IMG/VR virus record: IMGVR_UViG_3300020469_000021
Coordinates: 32,001-96,000 of that record
Strand: one strand, 5' to 3'
From: a virus
Length of the DNA stretch: 64,000 bases
Below the pieces are notes generated by a model. It ran no database searches. It saw only the letters and a list, made by a program, of their open reading frames with translations, and was not told where the DNA came from. Position numbers and translations under genes: made by a program. Positions 35,071 to 56,666 of this stretch are shown here, piece by piece; position 1 is the first letter of the stretch, and every line of letters begins with the position of its first letter.

Positions 35071-37413
35071 ATGATTATCGCACAAGACAAGTCTAAAAAA
35101 GTAGTTCAATCTCATGATTTTGAGCAAGTAAATTGCACCATCGATGCAGAAGATATGCGCTATGTCGCATCTCTTTTGAGAAACAATTACTCCAATCCAC
35201 CTCTCGCAGTAGTTCGTGAGATTACCGCAAATGCGCTTGACGCAAATCTTGAAGCAAATTCAAGTCGCAGGATTGAAGTTACTATTCCATCTGCTCTTAA
35301 TCCTCATTTTGTTGTTCGTGATTTCGGGGGTGGACTCAGTAAGGAAGATATTTTTGGTCTTTATTCTAAGTATGGAAAATCAACGAAAAGAGATAGCAAT
35401 AATTATATCGGTGCTTTCGGCATTGGTAAGTTTGCCCCCCTTTCTTATGGTGATAATTTTACTTGCGTATCCTACCACAATGGTACGAAAGCTACATATA
35501 ATATTTTTGTTAATGACGATGACGATACCAAGATTGTCGAGTTGCAAAAGCCTCAACCATCTGACGAACCAAGTGGTTTAGTAATAGAGGTTGCAGTTGC
35601 CGATGAAGATGTAGACACTTTTAGAGATGTTTGCAAACAATTCTTTCGCTTTTTCTCTGAAGAAGAAAAACCTAAGTTTATTGGTGTTGGAGAAGATGAA
35701 GAGTTTTTCGAGCCATACAAGGTTGTAATGGAAGCTGAAGATAAATCTTGGTGGATTCTTGAGGATGAAAGAGATTATTGGAGTAAAAGCCATGCAGAAT
35801 CTCATGCAGTTATGGGTAGGGTTCACTATCCGCTTAACACAAATGCAATAAATTTCTCATCAATTACAGATGGAGATGAATCTCTAACTAGAAACTTGAA
35901 AGAGTTAGCTTCGCACGAAAATCTTTACATTCGTTTTGATATTGGTCAACTCAAATTGCATCATAGCAGAGAATCTTTAGAGTACAACAAGCAAACTCAA
36001 AAGGAAATTCTATCTGTTTTAATGAATGTCCAAAAGGATATTGAGAAGATTGCAAAGAAAAAACTTGGTGATGCAGAAGATTTGTGGGACGCAAAAGCCA
36101 AGTATGCTCAAGTAATTAATGCTCTTCCTTATGGTCTTAAAAACTTATTTCAAAATTCTTTTGAATGGGATGGCATAAAGATCAAAGGAATAGAGATCAG
36201 TAGGGATTACAAGTATCAAGACGATATTATTATTACTGATTACCACAAGGATTCCGATGCAGATGCGACCGATGGTTATAGAGTTCGCTCTACAAAAATT
36301 CACAGAATCCTTCCGCATGAGAATACTCAACTCTGTATTCAATTCAATAAGCATCCTCATGGCAACGCTCAAAGAGTCAGAACCTTGTTCCAACAGAACG
36401 AAAATCTTGATAAAGTTACTTGCGTTTATGCTACCGAAGTAGGAGAAGAGCATCTTTATGATATTGATGGTATGCAGTTTAACAAATTTAAGAAGGGTAG
36501 AACCATTGACATTTCTACTATTGAAAAGGCAAAGTTGCAATCGAGAGGAACAGGTGTTTCGGGAGAAAGTCGAGCAGATGTCCCTCTTTTTGAATTTGAT
36601 GCAGATAATAAGAATAAATGGCAAAGGAAAAACGCAGACTATTGGCTTAATTGTATAGAAAAAATTGATGAATTAGAGTCTATTGCTTCAGAAGGTGGAG
36701 ATACGCTAATTTATGTTCCGATTTCTAATTATAAGATTGTCGATGACAAGGTAACAGGTCAAGAAGCAGTTATGGGATTGGACGCTTTTAAGAGAGATGT
36801 AAAAGCAATTTTCAATATTCAAAAGGATCAAGATGATTCATTCAGTCAACCTTTAATTTTAGGTATACGCAAAAAAGATTGCAATAAACTCGATAAAGCG
36901 TATTGGAAATCATGGGATGACTACAAGAAATCTTTTGCAAAGTCTTATTTAATAAACAATAAGCATATAATTACAAAATCTGAGAAGGCAATGGCTTATA
37001 AGGAGAATCAGTATAATATGAAAAATTATCGTTTACTTCATTCTTTGTTGGATAATCCTAATTGGAGAAAATTCGTCCAAGCTAATTTGCCTTCCCATCA
37101 CATTTGGTCTGAACTCATGGAAGATGTTGAGTTGATGATTGCAGAAGGCGCAGAAGAGCAGAAACTTACAACTATTTATCGTCTAGTAAACTTCTTGAAG
37201 AAAGAGGATGAAGAATGGGTCAAGGAAAATATTCAGTCAGATTATGATGTGAATGAATTCGACAATAAATGTTTAGAAATTTCTAAGCAATACCCATTGC
37301 TCGTCAATATTTGTGAAGGAATTTACGGATGGAGAAGTATGCAAGAGGGAAGCATTGGAGACAACATAATTAGCTACATAAATTTGTGCGATAAAGTGGG
37401 GGTTGGGAATTAA
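35071..37413 (+). CDS. rIIA: rIIA-like protein (N-terminal GHKL ATPase)
   Basis: YSNP.LAVVREI.ANA.DA, VRDFG.GLS, YG.STKR.SN..IG.FGIG, SRESLEY; adjacent to rIIB. Confidence 0.85.
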   Translation: MIIAQDKSKKVVQSHDFEQVNCTIDAEDMRYVASLLRNNYSNPPLAVVREITANALDANLEANSSRRIEVTIPSALNPHFVVRDFGGGLSKEDIFGLYSKYGKSTKRDSNNYIGAFGIGKFAPLSYGDNFTCVSYHNGTKATYNIFVNDDDDTKIVELQKPQPSDEPSGLVIEVAVADEDVDTFRDVCKQFFRFFSEEEKPKFIGVGEDEEFFEPYKVVMEAEDKSWWILEDERDYWSKSHAESHAVMGRVHYPLNTNAINFSSITDGDESLTRNLKELASHENLYIRFDIGQLKLHHSRESLEYNKQTQKEILSVLMNVQKDIEKIAKKKLGDAEDLWDAKAKYAQVINALPYGLKNLFQNSFEWDGIKIKGIEISRDYKYQDDIIITDYHKDSDADATDGYRVRSTKIHRILPHENTQLCIQFNKHPHGNAQRVRTLFQQNENLDKVTCVYATEVGEEHLYDIDGMQFNKFKKGRTIDISTIEKAKLQSRGTGVSGESRADVPLFEFDADNKNKWQRKNADYWLNCIEKIDELESIASEGGDTLIYVPISNYKIVDDKVTGQEAVMGLDAFKRDVKAIFNIQKDQDDSFSQPLILGIRKKDCNKLDKAYWKSWDDYKKSFAKSYLINNKHIITKSEKAMAYKENQYNMKNYRLLHSLLDNPNWRKFVQANLPSHHIWSELMEDVELMIAEGAEEQKLTTIYRLVNFLKKEDEEWVKENIQSDYDVNEFDNKCLEISKQYPLLVNICEGIYGWRSMQEGSIGDNIISYINLCDKVGVGN

Positions 37414-37585: not shown

Positions 37586-38764
37586 ATGAGTGAGAGAATA
37601 CCATATACATTAAGTGAAAGTTCAATTTGCGTTTTTTGGGAAGGCAAGCCTTATACCATTCGCAAAGACAATGTAAACTTTGAAAATTTGAAGCAAGCGA
37701 TATTTGACGCTAGATACGAGGATGTTCCACAATATCTTGACATCGTTAAGGCAGTAGAAAATTTTGTTGAAGGCGACATCGAAGTTCGTGACGAAGTAGT
37801 TTACTACAAAAGTCATCGCTTGCATGGTGTTGTCGTGAATAAGTTGCTTGAAATGCTTCGTGCAGGAATGAAAGACTCTGCTCCGCTTACTAATTTCATT
37901 TCTCGTTTGCAAGCCAATCCAAGCGCTAATTCGGTAAATGAACTTTATTCCTTTATGAATTACAAGATGCTTCCTAACACTCCCGAAGGTAAGGTTTTGG
38001 GATACAAAGGAGTTCAATCTGATTATTGGTCAACCACAGGTAATGCAGATACCATTGTTCTTCAAGGCAAGACAAACGAAAGGCATCAAATTTTGAATGA
38101 AGTTGGCACAACCATCGAAGTTCAACGCAGATGCGTGGATGACAATAAGGACAATCATTGTTCTTTTGGGCTTCATGTCGGTTCTTATGATTATGCTGAT
38201 TCTTGGGCAGGAGATGGTGGAAGATTGCTTGTAGTCGAGTTTGACCCTGCTGATGCAGTTAGCGTTCCGACTGATTGTGATTTTCAGAAATTGAGGGTTT
38301 CCAAGTACAAGGTAGTCGAAGACATTACTGAACACAGGAAAGAGATGAATAAACCTGTCTACGAGGCTAATAAGCCCATCTATGGATCGAATAATGATAA
38401 TGATTATGAAATTGAGGATGAGGATGAAGGTCGTGATTATCTTTATGATGATGATGGAATAGATGGTGATTATGACATGGATCAAACCGATTCGGATGTT
38501 GAATCAAGAGATTCCAAAGAATTCTTCAAGAGATTTGCGAGTGCTAAAAATGAGGAAGACTTCTTAACGCATTTAGCTATACGAAATTATGTAGACAATA
38601 AGCATGACAAGGGCATCAATCCTTCTGTCAAGCAAGTTCGTTCTTTACAAGTTGTTCGTGATGCGAAGTTTGATACTGCACAAGTTGGAGACATCTTAGA
38701 TCAATTAGGGTTTAATTTAGATGGAAATGGTTGCCTTACCGACAAGTTGGTTTTAAGAAACTGA
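37586..38764 (+). CDS. rIIB: rIIB-like protein
   Basis: NPS..SV.ELY.F...LP.TPEG..LGYK, CS.GLHVG...YA, V..DP.D.VSVP.D....KLRV.KY.V. Confidence 0.85.
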   Translation: MSERIPYTLSESSICVFWEGKPYTIRKDNVNFENLKQAIFDARYEDVPQYLDIVKAVENFVEGDIEVRDEVVYYKSHRLHGVVVNKLLEMLRAGMKDSAPLTNFISRLQANPSANSVNELYSFMNYKMLPNTPEGKVLGYKGVQSDYWSTTGNADTIVLQGKTNERHQILNEVGTTIEVQRRCVDDNKDNHCSFGLHVGSYDYADSWAGDGGRLLVVEFDPADAVSVPTDCDFQKLRVSKYKVVEDITEHRKEMNKPVYEANKPIYGSNNDNDYEIEDEDEGRDYLYDDDGIDGDYDMDQTDSDVESRDSKEFFKRFASAKNEEDFLTHLAIRNYVDNKHDKGINPSVKQVRSLQVVRDAKFDTAQVGDILDQLGFNLDGNGCLTDKLVLRN

Positions 38765-41849: not shown

Positions 41850-42270
41850 TTTTCCAAGAGGCAGGACAAGCAATGGAGTTGAAAAACCTTAAATGGTTAG
41901 TAAGAAAATTGCTGGAGAGCCTTTAGAAGGACTGAAGTTACCTATAGAGCTTAAGTAGTTACTGAAGAAAATTTTTTCACTTTTATTTTCCTAGCTACTA
42001 CTTCGTATGAAGTAAGTTTCGCAAAAGGAGTTACTGACGAAATTCACTCTTGGAAAACACTTTGGAAGGGCTTATAATCCTTCCTGTGGGTGACTGAACT
42101 AATCCTGTCGTGAGCGGGATAAAGTATGCAAATTCCCTGTGGTAGGGTAGGTAGAGTCCAATCGGATGAGCTTAGTACGATTCCAAGTATAGTTTGTAGT
42201 TCGAAGTAGGTAATCCTGAACTGATGTTCACGCCGAAAAGTTGGAGGTATACAGTAGTCCTCCCCCACAC
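41850..42270 (+). ncRNA. Candidate large structured non-coding RNA
   Basis: 11-bp long-range helix 41850-41860/42047-42057; second domain closed by TGTGGG 42085/CCCACA 42264; many hairpins; no credible ORF. Confidence 0.65.
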
Positions 42271-42296
42271 CTATTTGTTTCATATTATTATTCCTG

Positions 42297-42445: not shown

Positions 42446-42448
42446 CCG

Positions 42449-42487
42449 ACCCTCACCTGCTTTTTTTTGCAGGTGGGGGTTTTTTTG
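42449..42487 (+). terminator. Intrinsic terminator
   Basis: ACCCTCACCTGC/GCAGGTGGGGGT stem followed by T-run. Confidence 0.8.
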
Positions 42488-43311: not shown

Positions 43312-43380
43312 CTAAGTCACTGAAGATCAAAGGGTTACGGCGCTCAGAGCGGTGTAAGTTGTTGGTATTCAGTAAGTTAA
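43312..43380. repeat. 69-bp tripartite element, copy 1
   Basis: CTAAGTCACTGAAGATCAAAGGGTTAC-GGCGCTCAGAGCGGT-GTAAGTTGTTGGTATTCAGTAAGTTAA. Confidence 0.85.
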
Positions 43381-44864
43381 GTTTTTTTAAAAAAAAAGTG
43401 TTGACTTAACCCAAGAATCTGTCAAACTAATAATTATGAAGATTGAACAAGACAGCGAATACCATCTCTCACTTGCCATTGAGCAAGTGATGATGAAACT
43501 ACAAAGCCTTGGAGCTACCAACGAAGATAGTCCTTTTGGAGAAACATTTGCCACGCTTGCCGTGCTATTAATGAAAGTTAGAGAAGAGGAGGAACAAAAT
43601 GAAAATGCAGATGCTTAGAGTTAAGATTCCCGTTTCCCAATGTATTGAGGAAGTTAAAGATTATATTTTATATAGTGAAATGGAGGGCGAGGTAGACAAG
43701 ACAGATCCTTGGTACTCAACCTTCGAGCTGCTAGAAGAACTAAAACAAAAAGTACTAGACGAGGAGGAAATGTCAAATGAATAAACTAATGGAAGCACAC
43801 AAGAAAAAGTTGGAGGAAAGATGTTCAATCACCGACGCAATCTCTGGAGTTGCAGATGAACTCTACGAAATGCGAAAGAATAACGATGAAACTTTCTTTC
43901 AATTAAAAAACATAGCGGGATCTCTCGACCTAGTTAGTCAGTACCTCTACGACATTAGTTGGGAGTTAAAGAAAAGCAACGAAAAAAGTGTTGACACAGA
44001 CGCATTAATTCAATAGTATTTTAACTATGATTACATTAGACACACCCGAACAAATCGATATGTTTCGATTCCTCAGTCTCAAATCCGCACTCAAGCTAGA
44101 GTGTCTTGGAATGAGCAGAAGAGGTCAATCAGCATATTCAATTATTAAAGCCGAGTACGGATTCAAAGGCAACAAGAAGTCCGTCTTAGAACAAATGGAA
44201 CAAATTATTAAGGAGTTTAAAAATGACTAAAGCACAGATAGAATCAAGAGTAGAAGGTTGGAATTGGAATATGAATATCTTCGAGATATATGATGAGCTC
44301 AGAGATGGGCATACGGGAGAAGAGCAAGAGCAACTTTTAACTTTTGCTTATAATTATTTCAATAACGATACAATGATCAAAGAGCTTGCGGATCATTTTT
44401 GCATAACTATTCATACAGACGAAGACTCACCAATCCCTTGCTAAGATGGAATTTGAGCAAAGAATGATAGATTATGCCCAAAAGTGGTATGAAGTAAACG
44501 ACCTAGAGACAGAGAAAAAGAACGGAAACGATCTTTATCTTCGAGTCAATGACAATGTATTTACTGAAGTCTCACACTGCGACATCAGACAAAAAGCCAT
44601 GCTATGGTTAGAATCAGAATTAGAAGGAGTAAACAATTATTAAAATGAACAATTACATAGAAGCAATCTGTATCGGCAAACCATTGGACTTGCCCGAATA
44701 CAATGAAGACACAGAACTTTGGGAGGTTCACTTTGAGGAATCACCCACCCCTTGGCATCCATATGATGAACAAGATTTAATTTCTTATAGTTGTGACTCA
44801 GCCGAAGAGGCATGCGAGTTGTACAACTATTACAACCAAAACCCTGTAACAAAGGATAATACAA

Positions 44865-45098
44865 ATGAAGAAGATAATTAATAAAATTAAAAGAATGTTC
44901 AACCCATTGTATAGCTTGGTCTATACTACTAAGGATGGACGCACCGAAATGTATACCATTGAGAAGCCTTTGCATGTCAATGAGTTTGGCAATGTAACTG
45001 AGAAGCTTGTTACTGCAGGCTTCAGAGCGTACTGCCATAACAAGAATGGTATTCGCTCCTTTCGATATGATAGAATCGTATCGCTAAATCGAGCCTAA
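44865..45098 (+). CDS. WYL-like small protein
   Basis: Y.TKDG.T...AYCH...GIRSFRYDRI. Confidence 0.5.
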   Translation: MKKIINKIKRMFNPLYSLVYTTKDGRTEMYTIEKPLHVNEFGNVTEKLVTAGFRAYCHNKNGIRSFRYDRIVSLNRA

Positions 45099-45148
45099 CC
45101 AAATAAGCCTTTGAGTATGTTCGTGTTATAGGGTTAATAGAAAACTTC

Positions 45149-45217
45149 GCAAGTCGTTGGTTATCAGCGGCTTGCGTCGCCCTGAGCGGCGTAAGTGCTT
45201 GATAGCTAGCAGGTTAT
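45149..45217. repeat. 69-bp tripartite element, copy 2
   Basis: GCAAGTCGTTGGTTATCAGCGGCTTGC-GTCGCCCTGAGCGGC-GTAAGTGCTTGATAGCTAGCAGGTTAT. Confidence 0.9.
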
Positions 45218-45312
45218 GACTATTTTAACTTTACTTGATTTTTTTTCTTGCGTTTTACTTATCACCTGTCATACTCATATATACAAAGCAACTTAAACAT
45301 AAGGAGAAAATC

Positions 45313-45723
45313 ATGGGGCTAGATCAATACGCATACGCTAAAGACGAAAACGAAGAGACAGAACATCTCGCAGAGTGGAGAAAACACAACCGCCTCCAAG
45401 GATATATGGAGAAACTTTGGGAGGACAAGGGCAGACCATTTGATGGTCAGTTGGATGATAACCCAATGGGAGATTTCAACTGCGTGCCTGTCGAGCTAAC
45501 GCTTACTGACCTTGAGCAACTCGAAGCAGTTATCGCTCAAAAGGATATGCCTGAGACAGGCGGTTTTTTCTTTGGTAGTGACTCCTACTCTTGGGAGCAA
45601 GAGGATGGAAAGCCCTACAAGGATGGCGATTACTTTTACAAAGAAACTGACTTGCAGTTTATATCTGATGCATACAAAGCCATGGCAAAAGGCAAGAAAG
45701 TATTTTACTCTTCTTGGTGGTAA
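45313..45723 (+). CDS. Conserved phage hypothetical protein (start corrected to MGLDQY)
   Basis: SD AAGGAG upstream; MGLDQY..WRKHN...GFFFG...YSSWW. Confidence 0.7.
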   Translation: MGLDQYAYAKDENEETEHLAEWRKHNRLQGYMEKLWEDKGRPFDGQLDDNPMGDFNCVPVELTLTDLEQLEAVIAQKDMPETGGFFFGSDSYSWEQEDGKPYKDGDYFYKETDLQFISDAYKAMAKGKKVFYSSWW

Positions 45724-46423
45724 ACGCTTGACAACTTAACGAAATTTTCTTAAGATTTATACTATGGAAACAATAGATATCACACCAACATGGTCAGCAC
45801 TCATTCCCATTATGGTTGAGGTGTTGAAGAGCCCAAAAGCAAGCAACTCTGCAAAACAAGAAGTTGTGGTTGAGTTAAAGCGTTTAGCTAAAATCGTTGA
45901 CGATCAAAACAGAAAGGCGAAACAAAATGGATAACTTAACTGAACAAGAATTAAAGGCAGTCTTTGATGTGGTTAATGTTTACGAACCCGAAGACATAAG
46001 GCATGTCTACCCCGCAATGGCGACTGATGAATTCATGAAAGATATAAACTCTGCATGGAGAAAGATTTTAAACTCTCTTGACAATACCAACAACAACTGA
46101 GAAAATACTATTATGCACGAAAAAATAGAGCAACCCGTAAATTCCTACACCGAATTCGAGAAGCTTCAATGGGCTTGTGATAAGCCAATGCCATCGATTG
46201 GCTCAGAAGTTAATGTCAAGATCAATGGTATTGGTCGATCAAAAGTCTTAAAGTATTTTGTGGAGTATGGCTTCATTGGAATGCTTGTTCAGCCTTTCGA
46301 CCCACCCGCTTGGTATATAAAGCAAAACGGGGCAGATGAGCCTTGTCATGTTTTTCCTGCTGAGACTGAAGAGCTTAGGGTTGAGAAAAAAGGCTTTTAC
46401 GAATCTATTCACAACGCAATGGC

Positions 46424-46492
46424 GTAAGTCACTCTATAACAACAAGTTAGGCCGCTCTGGGCGGCGCAAGTCTTTGCCGTCCAACGACTTAC
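46424..46492. repeat. 69-bp tripartite element, copy 3
   Basis: GTAAGTCACTCTATAACAACAAGTTAG-GCCGCTCTGGGCGGC-GCAAGTCTTTGCCGTCCAACGACTTAC; its TAA is the stop of 46113-46427. Confidence 0.9.
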
Positions 46493-46989
46493 GAGACTAT
46501 AAGCTAAACTTATTTTAGCTATAAGCGACAAAAGAAACTTCACTTAAAAACTTTTTTTTGCTTGCGGTTTACTCAGAATCTGTCAGTATATATATTATGA
46601 AAGCAAGGGAAATTAAGATTAGAAAGCCGATCCTTTTCACTAAGGCTCGCCCCTTCAAGATGAAGAACAAAACCTTAGAGAGAAAACTTAAACACAAAAA
46701 ACGCTATGAATATTAACGAAGATTTCACCAACGAATTTGAATGCCCCGAAGCCCAAGAGGTTATGGATCAAAGCATGGATTTCATATTTGACAAACTTAT
46801 CAACCCCATGAATGAAATGGGAAAGCTCACCGAAGAGGACTTGGCAATGATTAGCCTTATCGGCATCAGTCTCAAGATCATTTCCGAACAAGCGTCACTT
46901 TACGAAAAGTCTGTATCAGAAGATACTTCACAAAACTTTTACAAAAATTAATCCTTGACAATCAACAAAAAAACTGAGAGAATATAATC

Positions 46990-47919
46990 ATGTCAGAAAC
47001 AAAAAACAGAATTAACCTCGCCATCTGCGGAGGCGAGCATAAGGTAGTAACGCTAGGGGAAGTCGCTGATGTAGTGACTCCCGATATCGAGTATCGCAAA
47101 GAGGCGAACAAGGACGGAACGCACTCCGTTTCTTATCAGCCTATTTCGCACAATCTCTTGATTGACAAGACTCGTAACCATCTTGAGCAAGGTGGGTTTG
47201 AAGTTGTAGACGAGTGCCACAACCTCGCAAGAGGTGGCAAACGCTACTTTGGATTGTTTGAGGTCACTCACCCAAACAGGGAAAACACCGAGAGAGGCAC
47301 AATCGTTGGCTTGCGTAATGCTCACGACAAGTGCTTTCCTGCGGGATTGTGTGCAGGTGATGCTCCATTTGTTTGCGACAACCTCATCTTTACCAATTCG
47401 GTCAAGTTGGCTCGCAGACACACTAAGAACATCCTTTCCGAGCTAGATCATGTGATCTCTCGCACTTTGGGCAAGTTGTTCAATTTTTGGATGGGTCAAG
47501 ATCAACGCATCGTATCCTACAAGGATTTTGATTTGACTAACGCTCAAGTCAACGATCTTGTGATTCGTGCGTACAAAGCAGGTGCAGTCAGCAAGACTAA
47601 GATTGCTGATGTGGTTGACCAATGGGAAAAGTCTGATCACACCGAGTTTTGGGACAGAAACATGAACTCCCTTTACAATGCCTTTACCGAGGTATACAAG
47701 GGCAATCTTGTTGCCTTGCCTCAACGCTCTGAGGCATTGCACTCTGTTCTTGACTCTGAGGTCGGGTTCGATCTTTCAGCTTTCGATCCTCAAGTCGAGG
47801 AAGCTGAACTTGTCGAAGTTGCTCATGCCCCTGCCCCTCAAGTTCTTGAGGTAGCAGGTAACATAGATGGCGAAGTTCCTGCCGATCTATATGATGCAGA
47901 GGATGACTACCCTTTCTAA
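46990..47919 (+). CDS. DUF932-family protein with acidic tail
   Basis: PISH, G.RYFGL, GLRNAHDK, FVCDNL.F, RRHT, LYNAFTE. Confidence 0.7.
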   Translation: MSETKNRINLAICGGEHKVVTLGEVADVVTPDIEYRKEANKDGTHSVSYQPISHNLLIDKTRNHLEQGGFEVVDECHNLARGGKRYFGLFEVTHPNRENTERGTIVGLRNAHDKCFPAGLCAGDAPFVCDNLIFTNSVKLARRHTKNILSELDHVISRTLGKLFNFWMGQDQRIVSYKDFDLTNAQVNDLVIRAYKAGAVSKTKIADVVDQWEKSDHTEFWDRNMNSLYNAFTEVYKGNLVALPQRSEALHSVLDSEVGFDLSAFDPQVEEAELVEVAHAPAPQVLEVAGNIDGEVPADLYDAEDDYPF

Positions 47920-47944
47920 AGGGTTGGTCGCCAAATAGGCAAAT

Positions 47945-47973
47945 AAGCCCCCTCACCCCGAGGGGGCTTTTTT
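47945..47973 (+). terminator. Intrinsic terminator
   Basis: AAGCCCCCTC/GAGGGGGCTT stem plus T-run. Confidence 0.85.
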
Positions 47974-47991
47974 ATTGGGCATTTACTTTCT

Positions 47992-48060
47992 GTAAGTCAT
48001 TGATGATCAAGGGCTTACGGCGCTCTGAGCGGCGCAAACTATTGATTGGTAGGTACTTAC
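47992..48060. repeat. 69-bp tripartite element, copy 4
   Basis: GTAAGTCATTGATGATCAAGGGCTTAC-GGCGCTCTGAGCGGC-GCAAACTATTGATTGGTAGGTACTTAC. Confidence 0.9.
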
Positions 48061-48143
48061 GACAAAAAGAAAAAAAAGTATTGACTTCACTCGATATTCT
48101 GTCACAATTGTATTTAGTTCTTTTGACAATCAATTTCATTTGT

Positions 48144-48260
48144 GCCCTCTTAGTTTACATTGGTGAAAACAATGGCTCTCGGCAGTATACTAGTTAAGCC
48201 TGCGAGCGACCGATCATCGTTTTGGAGTCAAAGAGGTGAGTTCGAATCTCACAGAGGGCT
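48144..48260 (+). tRNA. tRNA-like RNA with 43-nt anticodon-loop insertion (possible intron-containing tRNA-Gln(TTG))
   Basis: Acceptor GCCCTCT/AGAGGGC, D stem GTTT/AAAC, T arm GTGAG-TTCGAAT-CTCAC; 50-nt loop ending TT-TTG-GA; no CCA. Confidence 0.6.
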
Positions 48261-48261
48261 G

Positions 48262-48336
48262 CTTTTTCTGTAGATGCGAAAGCATTGAACAACGAGGCGT
48301 CAGCACACGCCTACAACCTTCGGGAGAGAGAAAAAG
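48262..48336 (+). ncRNA. Small multibranch RNA candidate
   Basis: CTTTTTCT/AGAAAAAG closing helix; ATGC-GAAA-GCAT, AGGCGT/ACGCCT and CC-TTCG-GG hairpins. Confidence 0.5.
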
Positions 48337-48346
48337 GTTCACAATT

Positions 48347-48439
48347 TTGAGAGTGCAGTACCAAGCCTTATAGGCACCTAGTGTCACATCCTCGGTAAGA
48401 CGGGGTAGCATTTACCACGGGCGGCTCCGTGGCTCTCAA
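48347..48439 (+). ncRNA. Small multibranch RNA candidate
   Basis: TTGAGAG/CTCTCAA closing helix; GTGC/GCAC, CCTCG/CGGGG and CCACGG/CCGTGG stems. Confidence 0.5.
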
Positions 48440-48779
48440 TTCACTTTATTATGACACAACAGCAAACATTCTCACTAGCATTCTTAATCATCATGATTGC
48501 CATCGCAATAGTTCATTTTCTTGGGCTTAGCGGTTGACAATCAATAAAAAATTGTTTAGATTTATATCATGAAACATTCAGAGAGCGGTAATCGTAAAGT
48601 TCTAAAGCAAATAAAGAAATGCCCAGATATTGAGGAGATTCGGGCGACTGCAAATGGGTATATGATCATGGCAAAGAACGGAGAGCAATACTTGGCTCAT
48701 ATGTCTGCCAAAGCATTTCACCCGCTTCGCAGGTGGCTAAAGAACAATACAAGACTAAAGGCATTAAAGTTCTAATTTC

Positions 48780-48848
48780 ATAAGCCTTTGCGATTCAAGG
48801 GTTTACGACGCCCTGAGCGACACAAGTCCTTGCCGGGCAACAACTTAC
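48780..48848. repeat. 69-bp tripartite element, copy 5
   Basis: ATAAGCCTTTGCGATTCAAGGGTTTAC-GACGCCCTGAGCGAC-ACAAGTCCTTGCCGGGCAACAACTTAC. Confidence 0.88.
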
Positions 48849-49732
48849 AGCGTTAAGCAAAACTTTCTTGCGATTTAGCATTTTTTTTCTTGCAATTAAG
48901 GCAAAACGGGCTTAGTATCTATGTATGATTATTAACTACGACATACCAAACTACATTTCAGATTATCAAGCCGATGCCCCAAAGAGTAGACTCAAGGGGT
49001 TTGATGATTTAGTTTTCGAGCCTCATTTAGGATTTGCCGATGGCAAGGCTATTCAAGCCATACTTGATTTTGGTTCGAGGAATCAATTCACCATATCAGT
49101 CGTGCAAAACACTAAAGACAACATTGGATTGTATGGCAACCCTTCGGATAACACTTACGAAGTCGCAATGTGGTATGATGGCAGAGAAACCATGCTTCCT
49201 TTGTCTGTTGGTGATGATGTTCTTGCATGGCAAACTCCCGTTCAGATCACTAAGCTAATGCATCAAGCACATCTTAACGATTTTGCTTGGGTCACCCTTC
49301 TTCATAACATTAGACAAGACTACAACAAAGAATTAGGTCTTGACAACTTAGACCAATACTGAGAGAATACTATCATGACAGATCGAAACCAACAACTCAC
49401 GGGCAACGCTTTGCTCATTTACTTAATGTCTCGCTTTAACATGACAAAGCCAGAAGCTCTCAACTCAATGAGAAGAGCAGGGCACAACACGGACAACCTA
49501 TAATTATGAGCTATAACGGATGGAAAAATAGAGAGACTTGGAATGTCGCCCTTTGGATCGGCAACGACGAGGGAATGTATAATTTCGCCAAAGAGTGTGG
49601 AACTTATGATAACTTTGTCGAGCAGATGAGAGAGGTTGGATATACCGAGACTCCCGACAGGGTAGCTTACAACGACAGCAGCCTTGACCTTCCAAGGCTC
49701 GAAGAGTATTTTGATGAACTAAGAGAAGACGA

Positions 49733-49801
49733 CTAAGTCGTTGACAATCAGCGACTTGCGTCGCTCTGGGCGCCGGAAAGTCTTGGTATTCAAGGACTTA
49801 C
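49733..49801. repeat. 69-bp tripartite element, copy 6
   Basis: CTAAGTCGTTGACAATCAGCGACTTGC-GTCGCTCTGGGCGCC-GGAAAGTCTTGGTATTCAAGGACTTAC; its TAA is the stop of 49506-49736. Confidence 0.9.
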
Positions 49802-50093
49802 AACTATTTTTACTTAGTTGCAATTTTTTTCTTGTGTTTTACTGAGAATCTGTCAGTATATAGGAATGAAAGAAACAGTAAAAGTACTAATGTCCCGCGA
49901 TGGTTTAACCCAAGCCGAGGCGGTCAAGCAAGTTGTTCAATTCTTTAACGAAATGAAAGCTGATTGGGAAGCCGGCGGCGACCTTTCCGAATGGGAGCAT
50001 ATTTTCATGAGTGATTTTGGGCTTGAGCCTGATTACTTTGAGGATTTTATTTTTAGGCTTGCATAGTCAAACTAATTCAACTAGTATTCTATT

Positions 50094-50810
50094 ATGATTA
50101 AAACAACTCTACTCACCGCAGGGAATGCCAAGATTACAAAGGGCGAGGCATTCGGATATTTAACTAAAGGCATTCACTTAGCTCCCGCTAATTTGTCGGG
50201 TTACGAAGTTTGCCAATGGCGTTCTAAAGGTTGCACTATGGCTTGCCTCAACACAGCAGGTCGTGGGCAAATGAATTCTGTTCAAGATTCACGCATTGCC
50301 AAGACTAAGTTGTTCTTTGAGCAAAGGTTTGACTTCCTTGCCAAACTATCAAAAGAAATTACTTCCACGATTAAGTCGGCAAGCAAGAAAGGTTTGCAAG
50401 CGGTCTTCCGCCCCAACCTTACAAGCGACATTGCATGGGAAAACATTATCAATGAAGATGGTGTGAATTTGTTTGAGAAGCATAGCAAAACTCAATTTTA
50501 TGATTATACTAAGTCATTCAAAAGGATGCAACGCTTTCTCAATGGTGAATTGCCTAGTAACTACCACTTGACTTTTTCTTGCTCCGAGACTAACGAAAAG
50601 ATTGCCAAACTTGTTTTAGAGATGGGCGGCAATGTTGCGGTTGTCTTTCGTAACCAATTACCCGACACTTGGAATGGTGTCGAGGTTGTCAATGGCGACG
50701 AATCAGATTTGCGATTTCTTGACAAGCAAAGCGTTGTCGTTGGACTTATAGAAAAAGGTCTTGCCAAAAAAGATTTGACAGGATTCGTTAAAGAAGGTAT
50801 AAATTCATAA
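50094..50810 (+). CDS. Gp88-like phage protein
   Basis: LAPA...C......C...CL..AGRG, RPN.TSDI.W, FYDYTK, NYHLTFS, NVAVVF, GD.SDLRFLD. Confidence 0.7.
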   Translation: MIKTTLLTAGNAKITKGEAFGYLTKGIHLAPANLSGYEVCQWRSKGCTMACLNTAGRGQMNSVQDSRIAKTKLFFEQRFDFLAKLSKEITSTIKSASKKGLQAVFRPNLTSDIAWENIINEDGVNLFEKHSKTQFYDYTKSFKRMQRFLNGELPSNYHLTFSCSETNEKIAKLVLEMGGNVAVVFRNQLPDTWNGVEVVNGDESDLRFLDKQSVVVGLIEKGLAKKDLTGFVKEGINS

Positions 50811-50976
50811 TGGACTATTACGATTCAGCCGAGGACATCACTATAACGCAAGACCGAGCTTTGCAAGAATTGGCAAGGCACGGGATCACATCCAATGAGG
50901 ACATTTTAGAGTTCTTTGCAGATGTGGGCGAGTCTCAAGAGTATGACGCACAAGAGGTTTTAGATTGGCTAGGCTA

Positions 50977-51045
50977 CTAAGTCATTGATAATCAGGCACT
51001 TAGGGCGCTCTGGGCGGCGCAAGTCATTGAAGTGCAAGGACTTAC
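50977..51045. repeat. 69-bp tripartite element, copy 7
   Basis: CTAAGTCATTGATAATCAGGCACTTAG-GGCGCTCTGGGCGGC-GCAAGTCATTGAAGTGCAAGGACTTAC; its TAA ends ORF 50810-50980. Confidence 0.9.
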
Positions 51046-51148
51046 GTATTATTAGAGAAACTTATAAAGGATATAAGCGGGCGGACAAAGTGATTATTTT
51101 ACATTTTTTTTTGTTGCAGTTTGCTCAAAAGTCCTTAGTATTTTATGT

Positions 51149-51334
51149 ATGATAACTATTAAGAAAAACGCTAACTTTCCCAAGTGGATTCAAGTCTTCG
51201 CCTTCGGTAATTTCATTGACGAGGTAGAAGGTAACGCAAAGGCATTGCGTCTAGCAAAGACTATTGCCAAGAAAAATGGAGTCGCCCATATTAATGTTTT
51301 TGGTGAAGTAAAAAAAATTGAAGAAAATGCCTAA
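51149..51334 (+). CDS. Small hypothetical protein, paralog of 53828-54004
   Basis: MITIKKNANF.K..QVFAFG.FIDEV. Confidence 0.7.
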   Translation: MITIKKNANFPKWIQVFAFGNFIDEVEGNAKALRLAKTIAKKNGVAHINVFGEVKKIEENA

Positions 51335-52040
51335 TGGGCTTGACATTCAACCGATAATTTAAGAGAATACTATCATGGAAAATCAAAAAGAACAACTCAC
51401 TCAAGAACAACGCATCGAGCTTATCCGTCAAGCAGTCGAACAAACAAAAGGAGTCGCTCTCAGCGATCAAGCCCAAGAGTTTGTAGAGGATGTTAAAACT
51501 GAAGAGTTAGTCGTCGAACATGGTTTGTTTGACACTCACAAAGAAGACTTGGAAGACGAGTCTCAATTTTTGTTCAGCGACTCTGCTGAAGAAATTGATG
51601 AAGAAGACGAATCTATCGGAGTAAGTTCCGAGATGAGTGAAGTCTATAACAACAACAACTAAGGAGGAAAACATATTATGCAATCAGAATTCTCATTCAT
51701 ACAAAAAGCTAATGCGGTGGCAAAGTATCAACCGCAAAATGTAAACAAACAAGGAGACAAACTTTGCTTCTCTTACATGAATAATGCAGGCGTTATGGTC
51801 AATGCTTTTTATGAGTATAGCTCACGCAAGTTCAAGTCTGCGGTCAAAGGCAGTCAGTACGGAGATGGTGTTGCCATCAGAAACCTTGTAGCAAAACCTG
51901 TTGTTGAAGGAATCTTGAGCAATGGATGAGTGGGTTGATCTTTTAATCTTCTTGCCGTGGGCTTTAGCTTTTGCTTTTTTGTGGCATTGTAATGAACATA
52001 TTTAGTGGTTAGTTATATTATTAGTTAGTATGTTAGTGTG

Positions 52041-52084
52041 GGCCCCTCACTCGCCCTTCAAAAAGGCGGATGGGGGGCTTTTTT
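52041..52084. terminator. Terminator at the convergence of the + and - blocks
   Basis: GC-rich hairpin GCCCCTCA..CGCC/GGCG..TGGGGGGC plus T-run. Confidence 0.7.
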
Positions 52085-52134
52085 GCAAATAGTCAAATAA
52101 AATCTTGAGGGCGGGCGATAGAACAATGCTTTTT

Positions 52135-52203
52135 GTAAGTCGTTGAACATCAGTTACTTGCGTCGCTCAGGGCGGCATAAGTAGCTGACTATAAAAGACT
52201 TAA
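52135..52203. repeat. 69-bp tripartite element, copy 8
   Basis: GTAAGTCGTTGAACATCAGTTACTTGC-GTCGCTCAGGGCGGC-ATAAGTAGCTGACTATAAAAGACTTAA; TTA at 52200 is the stop of the - strand gene. Confidence 0.9.
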
Positions 52204-52570
52204 GCTAAGTAACGCTCCCAGTCTTCTTGGTCAAAGCTGTCAAACGCTCCCCATGTATCAAACTCTATCCACTGGTGGACGACTTCACGAAGGCTTTCGT
52301 TTTCTCTGTCCCACAGGTGGATTTCTAGCTGAAACTCAGCTTTTAGTGGAGAGTTGATATATTGCTCTGCTAAAGCGTAGCAGCTACTAAGACCATCTCG
52401 ATCTTTTGGAGTAGAGAGTGCTACCTCTCCGTCGTGAACTAATTCGTATCTTAACATATCCATAAAGTAGTTTAATTTTGGTTAAAAGTCAAGAGATTTT
52501 TAAACAAATTTTAACAAACACAATGCCAAATAACTGCCCCGGGCAGAATTTTGCTTTCAACTATGTTTCC

Positions 52571-52639
52571 ATAAGGTGTTGGTGATCAATGACTTATGTC
52601 GCTCAGGGCGGCGTAAACCCTTGATTATCAAGGATTAAT
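52571..52639. repeat. 69-bp tripartite element, copy 9
   Basis: ATAAGGTGTTGGTGATCAATGACTTAT-GTCGCTCAGGGCGGC-GTAAACCCTTGATTATCAAGGATTAAT; overlaps the stop of 52635-52895. Confidence 0.9.
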
Positions 52640-53762
52640 GAAACTGTTTTAAGGTTTTCTTGCGGGTGACTGCTCGGGTGATTAGCTCGTCAGGTTCTAG
52701 CATATGGGCGTAGACGCCCGTGGCGTCTTGCTCGCCATAGCCTCGGGAGTACCAAGGTCCGCCCGTATTTATATCCTTGCAGGCAAGGGCTGCGTTAATG
52801 CCTCGGTCTTGCCAAAACTTTTTCCAAGCCAAGTCAACACTTTGAGAGAGACCTGCAAGTGTTTCGTTGTATCGTGCAATTTCTTCCTCACTCATTATGA
52901 GTTGGCTTTTGAAAGCGTTGGGATTACTAAAGCAAAGAAAACCATAAGAATCATTTCGATCATTTTACTTACCTAAGTAGAATTTTACTTGCTCGGATGT
53001 GGCAGGACTCAAGTCTTTAAACAAAACCTCGGATTCTATCATGTCGGAAGCGTGATGCTTTAGCGTTGCAACCTTTTGGGTTTGGTCTGCCCGAAGTACT
53101 CGGACGATACAAGCGTTTGATTTTGAGAAGTAGATTTGTCCATTTGTTATTTTCATAATTATAAAGTATTATAGTTTTTAGAGAATTGCAAGTTTTTTTT
53201 TACTTTTTTTGTCTCTTAGGCAAGACAAATGCGAGGAGGATTTTTTCTCTTTCAGTTAGGATCTGCTCCTCCTCTTGCCATCTACGGATGACTTGCTGAG
53301 CGGCAATCTCAGCCTCGACTCGAGAGCGTTCCTCAAATTCGAGATCGGTCATGCCGAAGGCGTGGGCGGTGCGGGTGAGTGAGTCATTATTTTCCATAAG
53401 TATAAGATTAAAGATTTGTAATTATATTTTAAAACTAAACTATTTTTTAGTGAATTGCAAGGGAAAAGCGAATTATTTTACCGCTTCCACTATCATGTCG
53501 TAAGTCCAAACGTGACCACCGACATCTTCCCAAAGATCATAAGCCACCGCCATGGGGCTTGCTTGGATACGTACAAGACCATTGTCTTGAATGAATTTTT
53601 CTATTTTCTTATCTAACATACCTATAAGGTAGCATATAAAACGCATATTTACAAGATTTTTTTTTACTATTAGCTTCTTTTTAGCTGAGCTTATAGCTTG
53701 CTAAACCCGGGCTTATACTTGCCGCGAGTCATAAGTTGGCACGCTATATGAACATCGGTTTC

Positions 53763-53831
53763 GTAAGTCATTGAATGTCAGCTAGTTAGCCGGCGCAGGG
53801 CGGCCTAAAGCCCTGATTATCAACGATTTAG
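53763..53831. repeat. 69-bp tripartite element, copy 10
   Basis: GTAAGTCATTGAATGTCAGCTAGTTAG-CCGGCGCAGGGCGGC-CTAAAGCCCTGATTATCAACGATTTAG; TTA at 53828 is a stop. Confidence 0.88.
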
Positions 53832-54004
53832 GACACTTCTTGCATCAAGCCGTCAACATTGATGAAGTCTTGCTTGTGTTGCTTGGCTAGCTTGGTAGCC
53901 ATGCGTAAGGCTTTACTACGACGCTCTACCTCGTCGATGTATTGCCCAAAGGCGAACACTTGAAAGAACTTAGAGAAGTTAGGGTTTTGTTTTATTGTTA
54001 TCAT
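53828..54004 (-). CDS. Small hypothetical protein (58 aa, not in track), paralog of 51149-51334
   Basis: MITIKQNPNFSKFFQVFAFGQYIDEVERRSKALRMATKLAK... Confidence 0.7.
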   Translation of the reverse strand: MITIKQNPNFSKFFQVFAFGQYIDEVERRSKALRMATKLAKQHKQDFINVDGLMQEVS

Positions 54005-54605
54005 TTTAGTATATGTATTGATCTGTTGAGTCGATGAAGGAGTGAAGGATTGCTACTGACATAACCTCCCAAGGATTATTATCCCAATCAGCTTTCCCGA
54101 AAGCCCAAGCATGATTTAGCTCTTGGTCAAGGTCAGCACTTACTCGCATCTTGTAAGTCCGTTGTTCAGATGGGTTGCTTTTGAGCCTATCGACAACTTG
54201 AATGGTTACAGCTTGAAACTCGACTCTGCGAGTGGGAACATTTCTATTTGAAGTATTTAACATATTATAAACTTAAAGGATTTTTTGTGGAATTGCAAGA
54301 AAAAAATGAATTATTTTTACTCCCATTGGGAGTGATGACCAAAGTCGATGTCCTCGACTTCTTGGAAGTCAAGGAGTGCAACCTTGTCCTGAAGGTCGCC
54401 GATTTCGTTGCGAATTGCAACAAGGTCAGCGGAAGAGAGGACGGAGTCCGCAAGGACTTCGCGAAGGAGAGAGATTTTGTTGAGCATTTCGGACTTAGTC
54501 ATAATTTTTTTTGTGTTAGGTTTTCTTTATCTTATATATACAAAGTAGCAGAGTTTTCGCCAAAAGTCAAACTTTTTTTCACTTTTTTTTCATTTTTTTT
54601 GTGTT

Positions 54606-54674
54606 GTAAGTCGTTGGAAATGAGATACTTACGCCGCCTTGCGCCGGCTAACCGGCTGATAGTCAACGACTTAT
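54606..54674. repeat. 69-bp tripartite element, copy 11
   Basis: GTAAGTCGTTGGAAATGAGATACTTAC-GCCGCCTTGCGCCGG-CTAACCGGCTGATAGTCAACGACTTAT. Confidence 0.88.
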
Positions 54675-55694
54675 GAAAGAGCCGTTCAGGTTTCGTGCCA
54701 ATTTAGATGACGAGAGGATTGGTCATCTTTGTGTTGCTAGCAAACCAATCGAATGAGTTAATTTCTTGACCGTTTAAAACAGGCTCAAAGTTAACTTGGT
54801 GAACGCCTGCATTTGCAATGCCGTTAACGCGTTCGCGTGTGGTGGGAGTATTCCACCCCGCCAAGCTCCAACGGACTAGCCCGTCAAAGTCGCGTTTTAC
54901 GATGGCGTTACCATGTAGCCAAACGGTTTGCCCGTCTGTCTCGGTGTTGCCGACTTTTTTGGATGTGCCTTGCTCGAAGGCTTCTTTTATTTGTTCTGTT
55001 ACTTTTCTCATGGTATTATTTAAAAAATGGATGATGGCGAACATCACGAAGGCGGATGCCGTGAACGATATTCGTTCTGTACTTGCGAACATTTGCACAA
55101 GCCCCCCAAGTTGGGTGATCGATTGGGTCATCAGTAAGTTGATAGATTTTCTTGCAACGCGTCAGCACAACATCGCCCTTTTTGAATGTGTTAGTGTTTT
55201 TCATATATATAAAGTAGCACGTTAAAGGTTAAAGGTCAAATTATTTTTTGCAGTTATTTATCATTGCCAACCTGTCTTGAGCTTTCCATTCGTCAAGCCA
55301 AGCTTGGTTCTTTGCCAAGAGATCCCGGGCAATGCTGACCATTTCGGCATCGGTATCGTGAGCGATGATCTCCCGAAGGAGTACCATCTCGGCTTTAACT
55401 TTTGAAGTGAGGCTAGCTGATTTATTCATAAGTATAACTTAGCAAAAAAACCCCGAAAAAGCGAGAACAAAAATCGGCATTAGGTGCGTTTGTAGTTCAG
55501 CTAATGGGGTTATTAGTAGCTCTACTACTTACCCCCACCCCGGTTTTTTAAAAAAAAAGATTGACAAATCGCTTGACAATTGGCGGGGGGTGGTTTTCTT
55601 CAATATGAAAACACAAAAGTATACTATAGAATCATGGTGGTCAAAAAAAATCGACGGCCAATTTTCTACAGAACAAACAGCTTGGCGGCTTGCT

Positions 55695-55946: not shown

Positions 55947-56666
55947 GTGATGGCTAAAAAGTCTACCAACAAGCCTGAGATATATATACCTCAGTTACCT
56001 CAAACTATTCACGTCAATTCTTTAAAACTAACAGAGAAACAAAAAAGATTTATTTCTATTGCGTTTAATGAAGATACTAATATAATGTTTATTGCCGGCC
56101 CGGCAGGGTCAACAAAAACTTATATGGCAGTATATGCGGCATTAAGATTATTGAGCGCTAAAGAAGAATTAGATTTACTGTATATAAGAACTGTTATAGA
56201 AAGCGCTGAAAAAGGCCTCGGGGCTTTGCCGGGTGATATTGATGACAAGTTTAATCCTTATATATCTCCTTTAGAAGACAAATTATCTGAAATGCTTCCA
56301 AAAACAAATACTTGCAAAAGAGAGCTTTTAGAAAATGGTAGAATTTCAGCTATGCCAATAAACTATTTAAGAGGCGCAAGCTGGACAGATAAAGTAGTTG
56401 TAGCAGATGAAGCACAAAACTTTACATATAAAGAGCTGACCACATTGCTTACAAGAGTAGGGGAAAATTGTAAGCTTTTTATCTGCGGTGATTTTATGCA
56501 AAGCGACATTAATGGCAAAAGCGGATTTGGCCCAATGTTCGATTTATTTAATGACCCAGAAAGTAAAGACAGAGGAATACATGCTTTTAAATTTGGGAAA
56601 GAAGATATTCTAAGAAGCGAGATATTAAAATTTATTATATCAAAGCTAGAAGGAAAAGCGAGCTAA
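55947..56666 (+). CDS. phoH: PhoH-family protein
   Basis: GPAGSTKT, LG.LPG...K..PY..P, YLRG.S, DEAQN, LLTRVG, GD..QSDI, DILRS. Confidence 0.92.
   Translation: MMAKKSTNKPEIYIPQLPQTIHVNSLKLTEKQKRFISIAFNEDTNIMFIAGPAGSTKTYMAVYAALRLLSAKEELDLLYIRTVIESAEKGLGALPGDIDDKFNPYISPLEDKLSEMLPKTNTCKRELLENGRISAMPINYLRGASWTDKVVVADEAQNFTYKELTTLLTRVGENCKLFICGDFMQSDINGKSGFGPMFDLFNDPESKDRGIHAFKFGKEDILRSEILKFIISKLEGKAS

Follow-up and report, generated by a model that had tools for sequence, protein, structure and literature searches.

Repeated 67-nt palindromic elements at the borders of small-gene units in a variable region of an uncultured viral genome

The locus

We analyzed 64,000 nucleotides of an uncultured virus (bases 32001-96000 of the 104,956-bp IMG/VR record IMGVR_UViG_3300020469_000021, whose estimated completeness is 79%). 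This stretch is called the window here, and its own numbering is used throughout. Eleven copies of a 67-nt element, built from two palindromic arms and a GC core, lie between positions 43313 and 54673, as determined in agreement by a repeat search, an alignment, and a model that was given only the sequence. The rest of the 105-kb record contains no further copy of the element. The cluster spans 11 kb, is located between the genes for rIIA (35071-37413) and rIIB (37586-38764) on one side and the gene for PhoH (55950-56666) on the other, and is interspersed with small genes. About 30 of the 38 genes in this region have no Pfam match. The G+C content is 39-43% from 42 to 56 kb, and 31-36% in the rest of the window.

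The window also encodes a DNA ligase, a clamp-loader-like protein, and a Kyanoviridae gp96-like protein. Because of rIIA/B, the clamp loader, the ligase, and the Kyanoviridae gp96-like domain (and these only), the sequence is treated here as that of an uncultured aquatic (marine) T4-superfamily phage. When rIIA, PhoH, and a GP88-like protein (50094-50810) were used as queries, the best matches were distant and mixed, and included actinophages as well as phages of Pelagibacter, Roseobacter, Stenotrophomonas, and Xanthomonas; host assignment failed. A megablast search with the region and a blastn search with one element against 50,697 named phages gave nothing useful.

Anatomy and position of the elements

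Each element has a GC core of 17 nt between two palindromic arms of 25 nt, and the arms are placed 42 nt apart. The consensus of the left arm is TAAGTCnTTGA-nnA-TCAGnGACTTA, that of the core is CGnCGCTCTGGGCGGCG, and that of the right arm is TAAGTnnTTGA-Tnn-TCAAnGACTTA. The genes between 42.5 and 52.0 kb are read on the + strand, those from 55.9 kb back to 52.2 kb on the - strand, and in both blocks each element sits 3' of the last gene of a unit. The repeating unit is a promoter, one to eight small genes, and an element, which is close to what an earlier model-generated reading of the window (the first-pass annotation) had described.

Copy 1 (43313-43379) has the 25-17-25 layout and is followed 22 nt later by the -35 hexamer TTGACT. 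The gene upstream of copy 2 (45150-45216) stops 51 nt before the element, and a TTGCGT -35 hexamer lies 30 nt downstream. Copies 3 (46425-46491), 6 (49734-49800), and 7 (50978-51044) each begin with a TAA that is the stop codon of the preceding + strand gene (46113-46427, 49506-49736, and 50810-50980, respectively). Copy 4 (47993-48059) directly follows a canonical terminator (47945-47969 plus a T run), and copy 5 (48781-48847) begins 5 nt past the stop codon of 48569-48775 (+). The + and - blocks converge at copy 8 (52136-52202), whose last TTA is the stop codon of the - strand gene 52200-52463. Likewise, the last TTA of copy 10 (53764-53830) is the stop codon of 53828-54004 (-). The arm TTA of copy 9 (52572-52638) is 1 nt out of register with the stop codon of 52635-52895 (-), and gene 54703-55131 (-) ends 29 nt away from copy 11 (54607-54673). 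The open reading frame (ORF) coordinates therefore agree with the first-pass annotation, which had placed the stop codon of the upstream gene in the outer TAA of copies 3, 6, 7, 8, and 10, one nucleotide off in copy 9, and just ahead of copy 5.

Together with their flanks (53732-53836 and 54601-54705), copies 10 and 11 form a 105-nt inverted repeat that is 74% complementary. This inverted repeat, which surrounds three - strand genes, could delimit an invertible or jointly moved segment. Gene order at this segment is not the same in L143, one of the related loci described below.

Promoters and terminators of the units

Every unit, on either strand, has its own sigma70-type promoter, and often several. 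Except for copy 8 at the point of convergence, every element has a T tract and then a sigma70-type promoter downstream: all seven + strand copies and three of the four - strand copies are followed by such a tract and by a -35/-10 pair. The gap between the element and the -35 hexamer is 22, 30, 69, 22, 41, 30, and 69 nt for the successive + strand copies, and 35-108 nt on the - strand. The element is tied far more tightly to the upstream stop codon than to the downstream promoter. Copies 3 and 7, which have the 69-nt gaps, are each followed by an extra small AT-rich hairpin (46495-46530 and 51060-51085) built on CTTATA/TATAAG words.

The promoters next to the elements have weaker -35 hexamers (TTGCGT, TTGCGG, TTGTGT, TTGCAG, TTGCAA, and TTGACT) after the T tract. 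For example, the + strand promoter at 46561-46599 reads TTGCGG-N17-AGTATA-N6-ATG and is preceded by a T tract, and sibling -35 hexamers are at 43402, 45247, 48082, 48889, 49831, and 51114. Seven further promoters, internal to the units, belong to a repeat family (window positions 43991-51375) with a perfect TTGACA, a 17-nt spacer, and a -10 hexamer (forms include GAGAAT and TAGTAT) that ends 6-7 nt before an ATG; no Shine-Dalgarno sequence is present. The copy at 46955-46992 (+) reads TTGACA-N17-GAGAAT and ends 6 nt before the ATG, and its siblings are at 43991, 45728, 46078, 48534, 49340, and 51340. Because the -10 hexamer ends so close to the ATG and a Shine-Dalgarno sequence is missing, these starts probably give rise to leaderless mRNAs. 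By contrast, gene 45313 has a classical AAGGAG.

The canonical intrinsic terminator just 5' of copy 4 (47945-47975, +) has a GC stem and a T run. A second, two-tier terminator, recognized by eye, is located at approximately 52040-52085, 5' of copy 8. The arrangement of terminators in front of copies 4 and 8 is conserved in L143.

The element family in related phages

A pattern scan and the sequence-only model both found the same arms in many IMG/VR contigs. In five records that were searched whole, the copies form one cluster of 9-20 kb per genome; one of these genomes is a complete 170-kb relative (G002), whose cluster runs across the ends of the contig. Conservation of the arms extends over the whole clade, whereas the core, although GC-rich, is specific to the lineage, with the consequence that the arm spacing is 42, 46-48, or 50 nt. 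The palindromic part measures 67-75 nt across the family, and single arms occur too. Orthologous copies keep their place between relatives. As to whether the orientation of the GC core is absolute or follows gene direction, the data are ambiguous (14 loci versus 10). A logo of 944 arms reads CG-TAAgTCgTTGA-ntA-TCAAcGAcTTA-CG. Each half of this logo (472 elements) reads tATCAAcGAcTTAc, or (t)ATCAAcGAcTTAc when read outward, and is called the half-site below.

A close lineage, L149 (identical to L153 and L176; GP88-like protein 80% identical), does not have these arms. Its unit borders carry another repeat, in which a G6-7C6-7 core is flanked by TTGCACGATCC-type arms and followed by a TTGACT promoter (e.g., at 8124-8240, 9756-9834, 10915-11015, and 12467-12566 in L149). 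Judging from these sequences, boundary elements turn over between lineages.

Stop codons within the arms

Four of the five genes that end exactly at an arm TAA are conserved in relatives, and one of them, 49506-49736, also matches the Pfam family DUF7249. Gene 52200-52463 has no homologue in any of the 28 relatives introduced in the next section, and no Pfam match. To the wider family we applied stop-codon tests with 472 distinct elements from 76 IMG/VR loci. ORF ends number 86 at the arm TAA, 51 at the TGA of the GTTGA located 8 bases in, and 0-17 elsewhere. The spike at the arm TAA is largely trivial, because any frame still open on arrival at a conserved stop codon will end there. An ORF of at least 45 codons is ended by 12.7% of arm-edge TAAs, compared with 8.6% of all TAAs in the same loci, an enrichment of only approximately 1.5-fold. 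The more informative test is that of reading frame: of the frames that reach the arm after 45 or more open codons, 112 are stopped by the TAA, 93 by the TGA (+8), and 62 are not stopped in the arm. Given this bias toward arm-stopped frames, the effect is real. The last consensus position is A rather than G in 93% of outer and 85% of inner half-sites.

The sharing of stop codons is thus real but modest family-wide, and is stronger in the window (5 of the 11 elements). The arm TAA is first of all part of a conserved word, and abutting genes are moderately biased to use it. Since the arm begins with TAA and carries a TGA in another frame, the genes that abut it end there.

Exchange of units between relatives

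A search with the GP88-like protein yielded 80 loci with 10-kb flanks. They form a graded series from L143 (88-92% nucleotide identity) down to loci with 56% protein identity. Adjacency was assessed in 28 non-redundant relatives, in cases in which both of two adjacent window genes are present in a relative. Gene presence across these 28 relatives is highly mosaic, and even in L143, neighboring genes differ in amino-acid identity (98% vs 43-59%). Adjacency is kept at 11 of 74 element junctions (15%) and at 100 of 171 of all other junctions (58%). For promoter-wide junctions that have no element, the count is 23/59 (39%), and for tight junctions it is 77/112 (69%). The pooled counts overstate significance, because the relatives are not independent; when calculated per junction, the difference between elements and all others has a one-sided Mann-Whitney p=0.0017. 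Synteny breakpoints are therefore not independent of the elements. The first-pass annotation had proposed that the elements are junctions at which genes are gained, lost, or shuffled. This idea stands insofar as breaks are concentrated at the elements, but the effect is not specific to them, since promoter-only junctions are broken nearly as frequently.

Individual loci show junctions at the nucleotide level. In the closest relative, L143, an unrelated gene of higher GC content stands in place of the one-gene unit 52200-52463. Homology between the window and L143 runs through the left arm and the core of element 8, stops before the right arm, and resumes exactly at the -35 hexamer of the promoter of the replaced gene. 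As homology stops after the core, the right arm goes with the replaced gene. The cassette that is swapped in L143 (52200-52489, -) comprises the right arm of element 8, gene 52200-52463, and the -10 hexamer and spacer of its promoter. Gene 54317-54502 is found elsewhere in L143, with junctions in GAATTGCAA(-35)/T-tract sequences. In another relative, L144, the unit 49734-50981 has other neighbors, and one junction lies in the first five bases of an arm. When units are swapped, the gene-adjacent arm travels with its gene. Relatives differ by replacement, loss, and reordering of units, and the breaks are concentrated at the unit boundaries.

Searches for enzymes that might carry out such exchanges were negative. 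No match to the tyrosine recombinase family PF00589 was found in the window's record (105 kb) or in four other phage records (G001-G004), which include the complete G002, and no match to the serine recombinase family PF00239 was found in the window's 105-kb record, the sole record searched for it; controls were positive in both cases. The first-pass annotation had seen no recombinase in the window, and this observation now extends to the whole 105-kb record and, for the tyrosine type, to the complete 170-kb relative. A Y1 transposase is also absent from all five phage records (G000-G004). The complete G002 contains a weak UvsX/RecA-like ORF.

DNA sites or RNA structures

The palindromic consensus raises the matter of whether the elements act as DNA or as RNA. 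Pairing was assessed in the window alignment against column-shuffled controls, and in approximately 430 family elements against arms shuffled within a locus. In the window, 73-77% of positions are pairable, which equals the shuffled controls for both a long-hairpin and a three-hairpin model (314/500 and 225/500 shuffles pair at least as well), and most of the variable positions have no pairing partner. For the approximately 430 elements, z scores are +0.2 and -3.3 for local hairpins and -9.9 for arm-to-arm pairing. Neither in the window nor in this larger set do the arms contain compensatory base changes, and long perfect palindromes appear to be avoided. Because covariation is absent, the palindromy is best attributed to the consensus, which is made of four copies of one half-site, and not to a selected fold.

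Predicted minimum free energy (MFE) RNA structures vary in shape between copies, with folding z scores of -1.5 to -4.4. A scan for hairpins followed by U tracts reported 26 terminator-like sites, which include canonical ones at 42448 and 47945 and none of the 11 elements, and no Rfam model matches an element. The elements thus present neither the GC-rich hairpin followed by a U tract by which intrinsic terminators are defined nor the compensatory pairs by which structured RNAs are defined.

The half-site in phages and bacteria

The consensus site of the DNA-bending protein IHF is WATCAANNNNTTR (PMC9452768, PMC10380432), and the half-site fits this consensus at every specified position. No HU/IHF gene was found in the five phage records. 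We also considered the MotA-box, FNR/CRP, Fur, LacI-type, and CtrA consensuses, but their spacing does not fit.

The half-site is also present in Stenotrophomonas phage DLP6, a cultured T4-superfamily phage for which "phage promoters in groups of two" were predicted with PHIRE (PMC5349666). In the DLP6 genome (KU682439.2), TCAACGACTTA(G/C) occurs 27 times (control, 0). The half-sites are mostly direct repeats 25 nt apart, in either orientation, near terminators and promoters (e.g., 34640-34740, 45310-45350, and 48050-48095). The first pair that was checked starts 2 nt past a stop codon and leads directly into a GC hairpin that has a T run, and elsewhere three direct copies, in opposite orientation, lie between a terminator and a TTTACT-N17-TATAAT promoter. 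The published description, taken together with the sequence, suggests that the PHIRE motif is probably the half-site, a motif that would then have been misread as a promoter. Direct repeats cannot form a hairpin, which makes the asymmetric half-site the likely functional unit, and such a unit would suit IHF, which binds an asymmetric site.

The arm palindrome is also common in bacterial genomes. When up to one mismatch is allowed, the Microscillaceae metagenome-assembled genome (MAG) Prado074 contains 463 copies and the WOR-3 MAG QQ_bins.197.1 contains 200, compared with 0 for controls. The relaxed pattern TTGA-N3-TCAA-N4-TTA occurs 2655 times in the Microscillaceae MAG (controls, 3-6). Its N4 is variable, and so exactly the positions specified by IHF are kept. 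In the two MAGs the palindromes are intergenic, and some lie beside tRNA genes or in longer hairpins with T runs. Y1 transposase genes in the Microscillaceae genome are not flanked by arms. Based on the absence of covariation, the IHF-like half-site, the direct repeats of DLP6, and the repeats in the Microscillaceae (Bacteroidota) genome, the arms are most likely protein-binding DNA rather than RNA hairpins.

Comparison with known elements

According to the first-pass annotation, the element matches neither the attC sites of integrons nor the promoter-early stem-loops (PeSLs) of T4-type phages (Arbiol et al. 2010, PMC2839356; Comeau et al. 2014, PMC4122927). The first half of this statement is sustained, as integron features (an integrase, promoterless cassettes, a single orientation) are absent. 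The second half needs revision, because the PeSL layout is matched, and in a hypervariable region, although the stem-loop part is far larger here and has another sequence. Both systems combine a palindrome, an A/T-rich tract, a sigma70-like early promoter, and a start codon; both are dense between small ORFan genes of a hyperplastic region; and in both, insertions, deletions, replacements, and displacements between close relatives occur at or next to the elements. PeSL exchange has been ascribed to homologous recombination without a dedicated recombinase (PMC2839356, PMC4122927). Differences are that the promoter here is 22-108 nt from the element, at variable distance, and not immediately next to it; that the palindrome is 67-75 nt long, in the form of two conserved arms of 25 nt around a GC core that is specific to the lineage, and not a short G(n)-loop-C(n); that the arm sequence is maintained throughout a very large clade and equals the IHF consensus; that starts are mostly leaderless here but Shine-Dalgarno-led in PeSLs; and that the upstream stop codon is often inside the element.

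In the BIME-1/RIB (RIP) elements of E. coli, which lie at the 3' ends of transcription units, an IHF site has REP palindromes on either side (reviewed in PMC3333891, PMC2817692). Both these and our elements are extragenic repeat mosaics at 3' ends in which GC-rich palindromes are combined with the IHF consensus. However, the order is inverted here, with predicted IHF-like double sites flanking a GC palindrome, and the elements are phage-borne, number 11 copies in 11 kb, and have no associated RAYT transposase.

Like attC sites, the elements are imperfect palindromes (57-141 nt for attC) at the 3' end of genes, with conserved ends and a variable center, and they delimit exchangeable units. Unlike integrons, the region has no IntI and no attI/Pc, and its cassettes have their own promoters and occur in both orientations. 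Instead of sharing one fixed point, the observed junctions lie where core and arm meet, at the edge of an arm, and within promoters, and nothing indicates single-strand folding. When the alignment was inspected for the attC core sites RYYYAAC and GTTRRRY, only some copies fit GTTRRRY (e.g., GTTGAAC in copy 8).

The DLP6 motif, probably the one predicted with PHIRE, shares with our elements the half-site (AAATCAACGACTTAC/G), a position 2 nt past a stop codon (at the one site checked), and proximity to GC hairpin terminators and sigma70-type promoters. It differs in that its direct repeats, 25 nt apart, are distributed genome-wide, and in that a true terminator with a T run takes the place of the core. 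The stoperators of mycobacteriophage L5 are 13-bp asymmetric sites found genome-wide in one orientation relative to transcription and are bound by the repressor of this temperate phage. In L5, as in the window, many short conserved protein-binding sites (candidate sites in our case) lie in intergenic gaps or over stop and start codons. The sites of the two systems differ in symmetry and spread, and L5 has a phage repressor.

Other features of the region

A manA RNA is located at 42064-42273 (+; Rfam RF01745, 76 bits), and is followed by a strong terminator (42448-42481) and then by the first early-type promoter. A tRNA-like gene at 48144-48260 (+) has its own promoter, with the -35 hexamer at 48082. 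The Rfam tRNA model matches this gene with 38.6 bits over 117 nt, a length that implies a long insertion; ARAGORN makes no call. The tRNA-like stretch is 74-82% conserved in several relatives (L145, L151, L152, and L157). Positions 46597-46716 (+), right after an element-adjacent promoter, encode a very basic 39-amino-acid protein that has no Pfam match and is among the most conserved of the region (27 of 28 relatives, 55-97% identity).

Interpretation and alternative explanations

We interpret the elements as composite modules that mark boundaries within the early, hypervariable region of a T4-like phage, whose units are traded by PeSL-type homologous exchange, and we give this reading a probability of roughly 0.6. 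A module would consist, in this order, of a stop codon, an arm, the GC core, an arm, an A/T tract, a sigma70-type promoter, and a mostly leaderless start. To judge from the junctions, exchange would proceed by ordinary homologous recombination between short conserved boundary sequences (core, arms, T tract, and -35 hexamer), and would not be site-specific. The GC core may be a small hairpin or a pause element, and arms and core together may insulate neighboring units and support the weak-(-35) promoter downstream. The arms, in turn, may be double-stranded DNA sites for a host DNA-bending protein of the IHF type, a step that, taken by itself, we rate at somewhat less than an even chance.

Several observations weigh against this interpretation. 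Homology ends are only 1.6-fold enriched in elements (11% vs 6.8% expected by length), breaks also occur at promoters and between genes, and the difference between elements and promoter-only junctions is weak (p=0.07). The elements may simply mark unit borders where rearrangement is tolerated. The variable gaps rule out a fixed helical phasing between element and promoter in the window. Regarding IHF, the arm spacing differs between lineages; the phage half-site also keeps cGAc, which covers three of the four "N" positions that IHF does not need; and IHF-alpha is not clear in the two palindrome-rich bacterial MAGs, being absent or below cut-off in these fragmented genomes.

The conservation beyond what IHF needs (TCAAcGACTTAC) would be better explained if the arms were operators for a sequence-specific regulator encoded by the phage, which might shut off or insulate early units as gp71 does in the case of the L5 stoperators. 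Such a regulator would also agree with the conservation of the half-site across phages as distant as a marine clade of 33% GC and DLP6 of 56% GC, with the overlap of sites with stop codons and their location between units, and with the different arms at the same places in L149, as expected if site and protein co-evolve. Nonetheless, no candidate binder came to light, and no gene in the region tracks the presence of the arms. The hundreds to thousands of copies of the palindrome in unrelated bacteria point to a cellular factor instead, and we regard a phage regulator as unlikely. We consider it quite unlikely, too, that the element works as an RNA in the form of a long hairpin, active in both directions, that would stop transcription, shield 3' ends, or serve as an RNase III substrate as the R sites between the early genes of T7 do. 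A role of this kind would suit a palindromic consensus that invariably follows the last gene of a unit and is in contact with its stop codon. It would also suit the folding of 10 of the 11 copies (77-nt windows, transcribed strand), which is better than that of 92-100% of dinucleotide shuffles, and the GC cores, which resemble the G(n)-loop-C(n) stem-loops of PeSLs (PMC4122927). It is at odds with pairing that lacks covariation and is even depleted, with variable positions that are mostly unpaired, and with MFE shapes that differ among copies. Furthermore, the elements have no U tract and none passes the terminator scan, canonical terminators immediately precede copies 4 and 8, each arm is internally palindromic, which is superfluous for a long hairpin, and DLP6 uses the half-site as direct repeats.

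Arms that resemble terminal inverted repeats, the many diverged copies, end stop codons of the sort typical of small mobile repeats, and the high repetition of the single-arm palindrome in some bacteria could all indicate selfish repeats, similar to REPs or to miniature inverted-repeat transposable elements, that are mobilized by a transposase in trans and tolerated when inserted at unit borders. We think this very unlikely, because no Y1 or other transposase is present in the five phage records and bacterial Y1 genes are not arm-flanked. In addition, the copies are limited to one region and one class of position (between a stop codon and a promoter), orthologous copies keep their places, and no target-site duplications were seen. 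The explanation to which we give the least credence, and which is highly improbable, is an integron-like system in which attC-type sites are cut by a dedicated, so far unrecognized recombinase. The grammar of a gene followed by a 3' imperfect palindrome with conserved ends and a variable center recalls such a system, and one swap junction does fall inside an element (element 8, L143). Against it are the lack of a tyrosine recombinase even in the complete 170-kb relative and of a serine recombinase in the window's record (the only one searched), the separate promoter of each unit on both strands, the additional junctions in promoters and at variable points, and the inconsistent occurrence of attC core sites in the arms.

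A broader and much more tentative hypothesis concerns the half-site (A/T)ATCAAnnnnTTA, which is 13-16 nt long and might be the recognition word of a DNA-bending protein common to many bacterial phyla. In a large clade of T4-like phages, pairs of it around a GC core would then form a boundary module that insulates early units, supplies stop codons, and provides shared homology, through which phages that have no recombinase could exchange units already equipped for expression. The bacterial repeats, which number thousands in some Bacteroidota and WOR-3 genomes, would be a previously unrecognized genome-wide architectural repeat. We suspect that this generalization is unlikely to hold in full.

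Implications

Hypervariable early regions contain genes for host takeover and counter-defense. Except in a few coliphages and vibriophages, little is understood about the way such genes are exchanged. With the boundary modules proposed here, PeSL-type modular shuffling would extend to a very large clade of uncultured aquatic phages, and would use a boundary element that is far more elaborate and sequence-conserved than the PeSL stem-loop. The element is also linked to the DLP6 motif, which offers an experimental system, to the IHF consensus, and to a palindrome that is massively repeated in bacteria. When these phages are annotated, the element can be relied on to indicate where units end and which stop codons are true ones.

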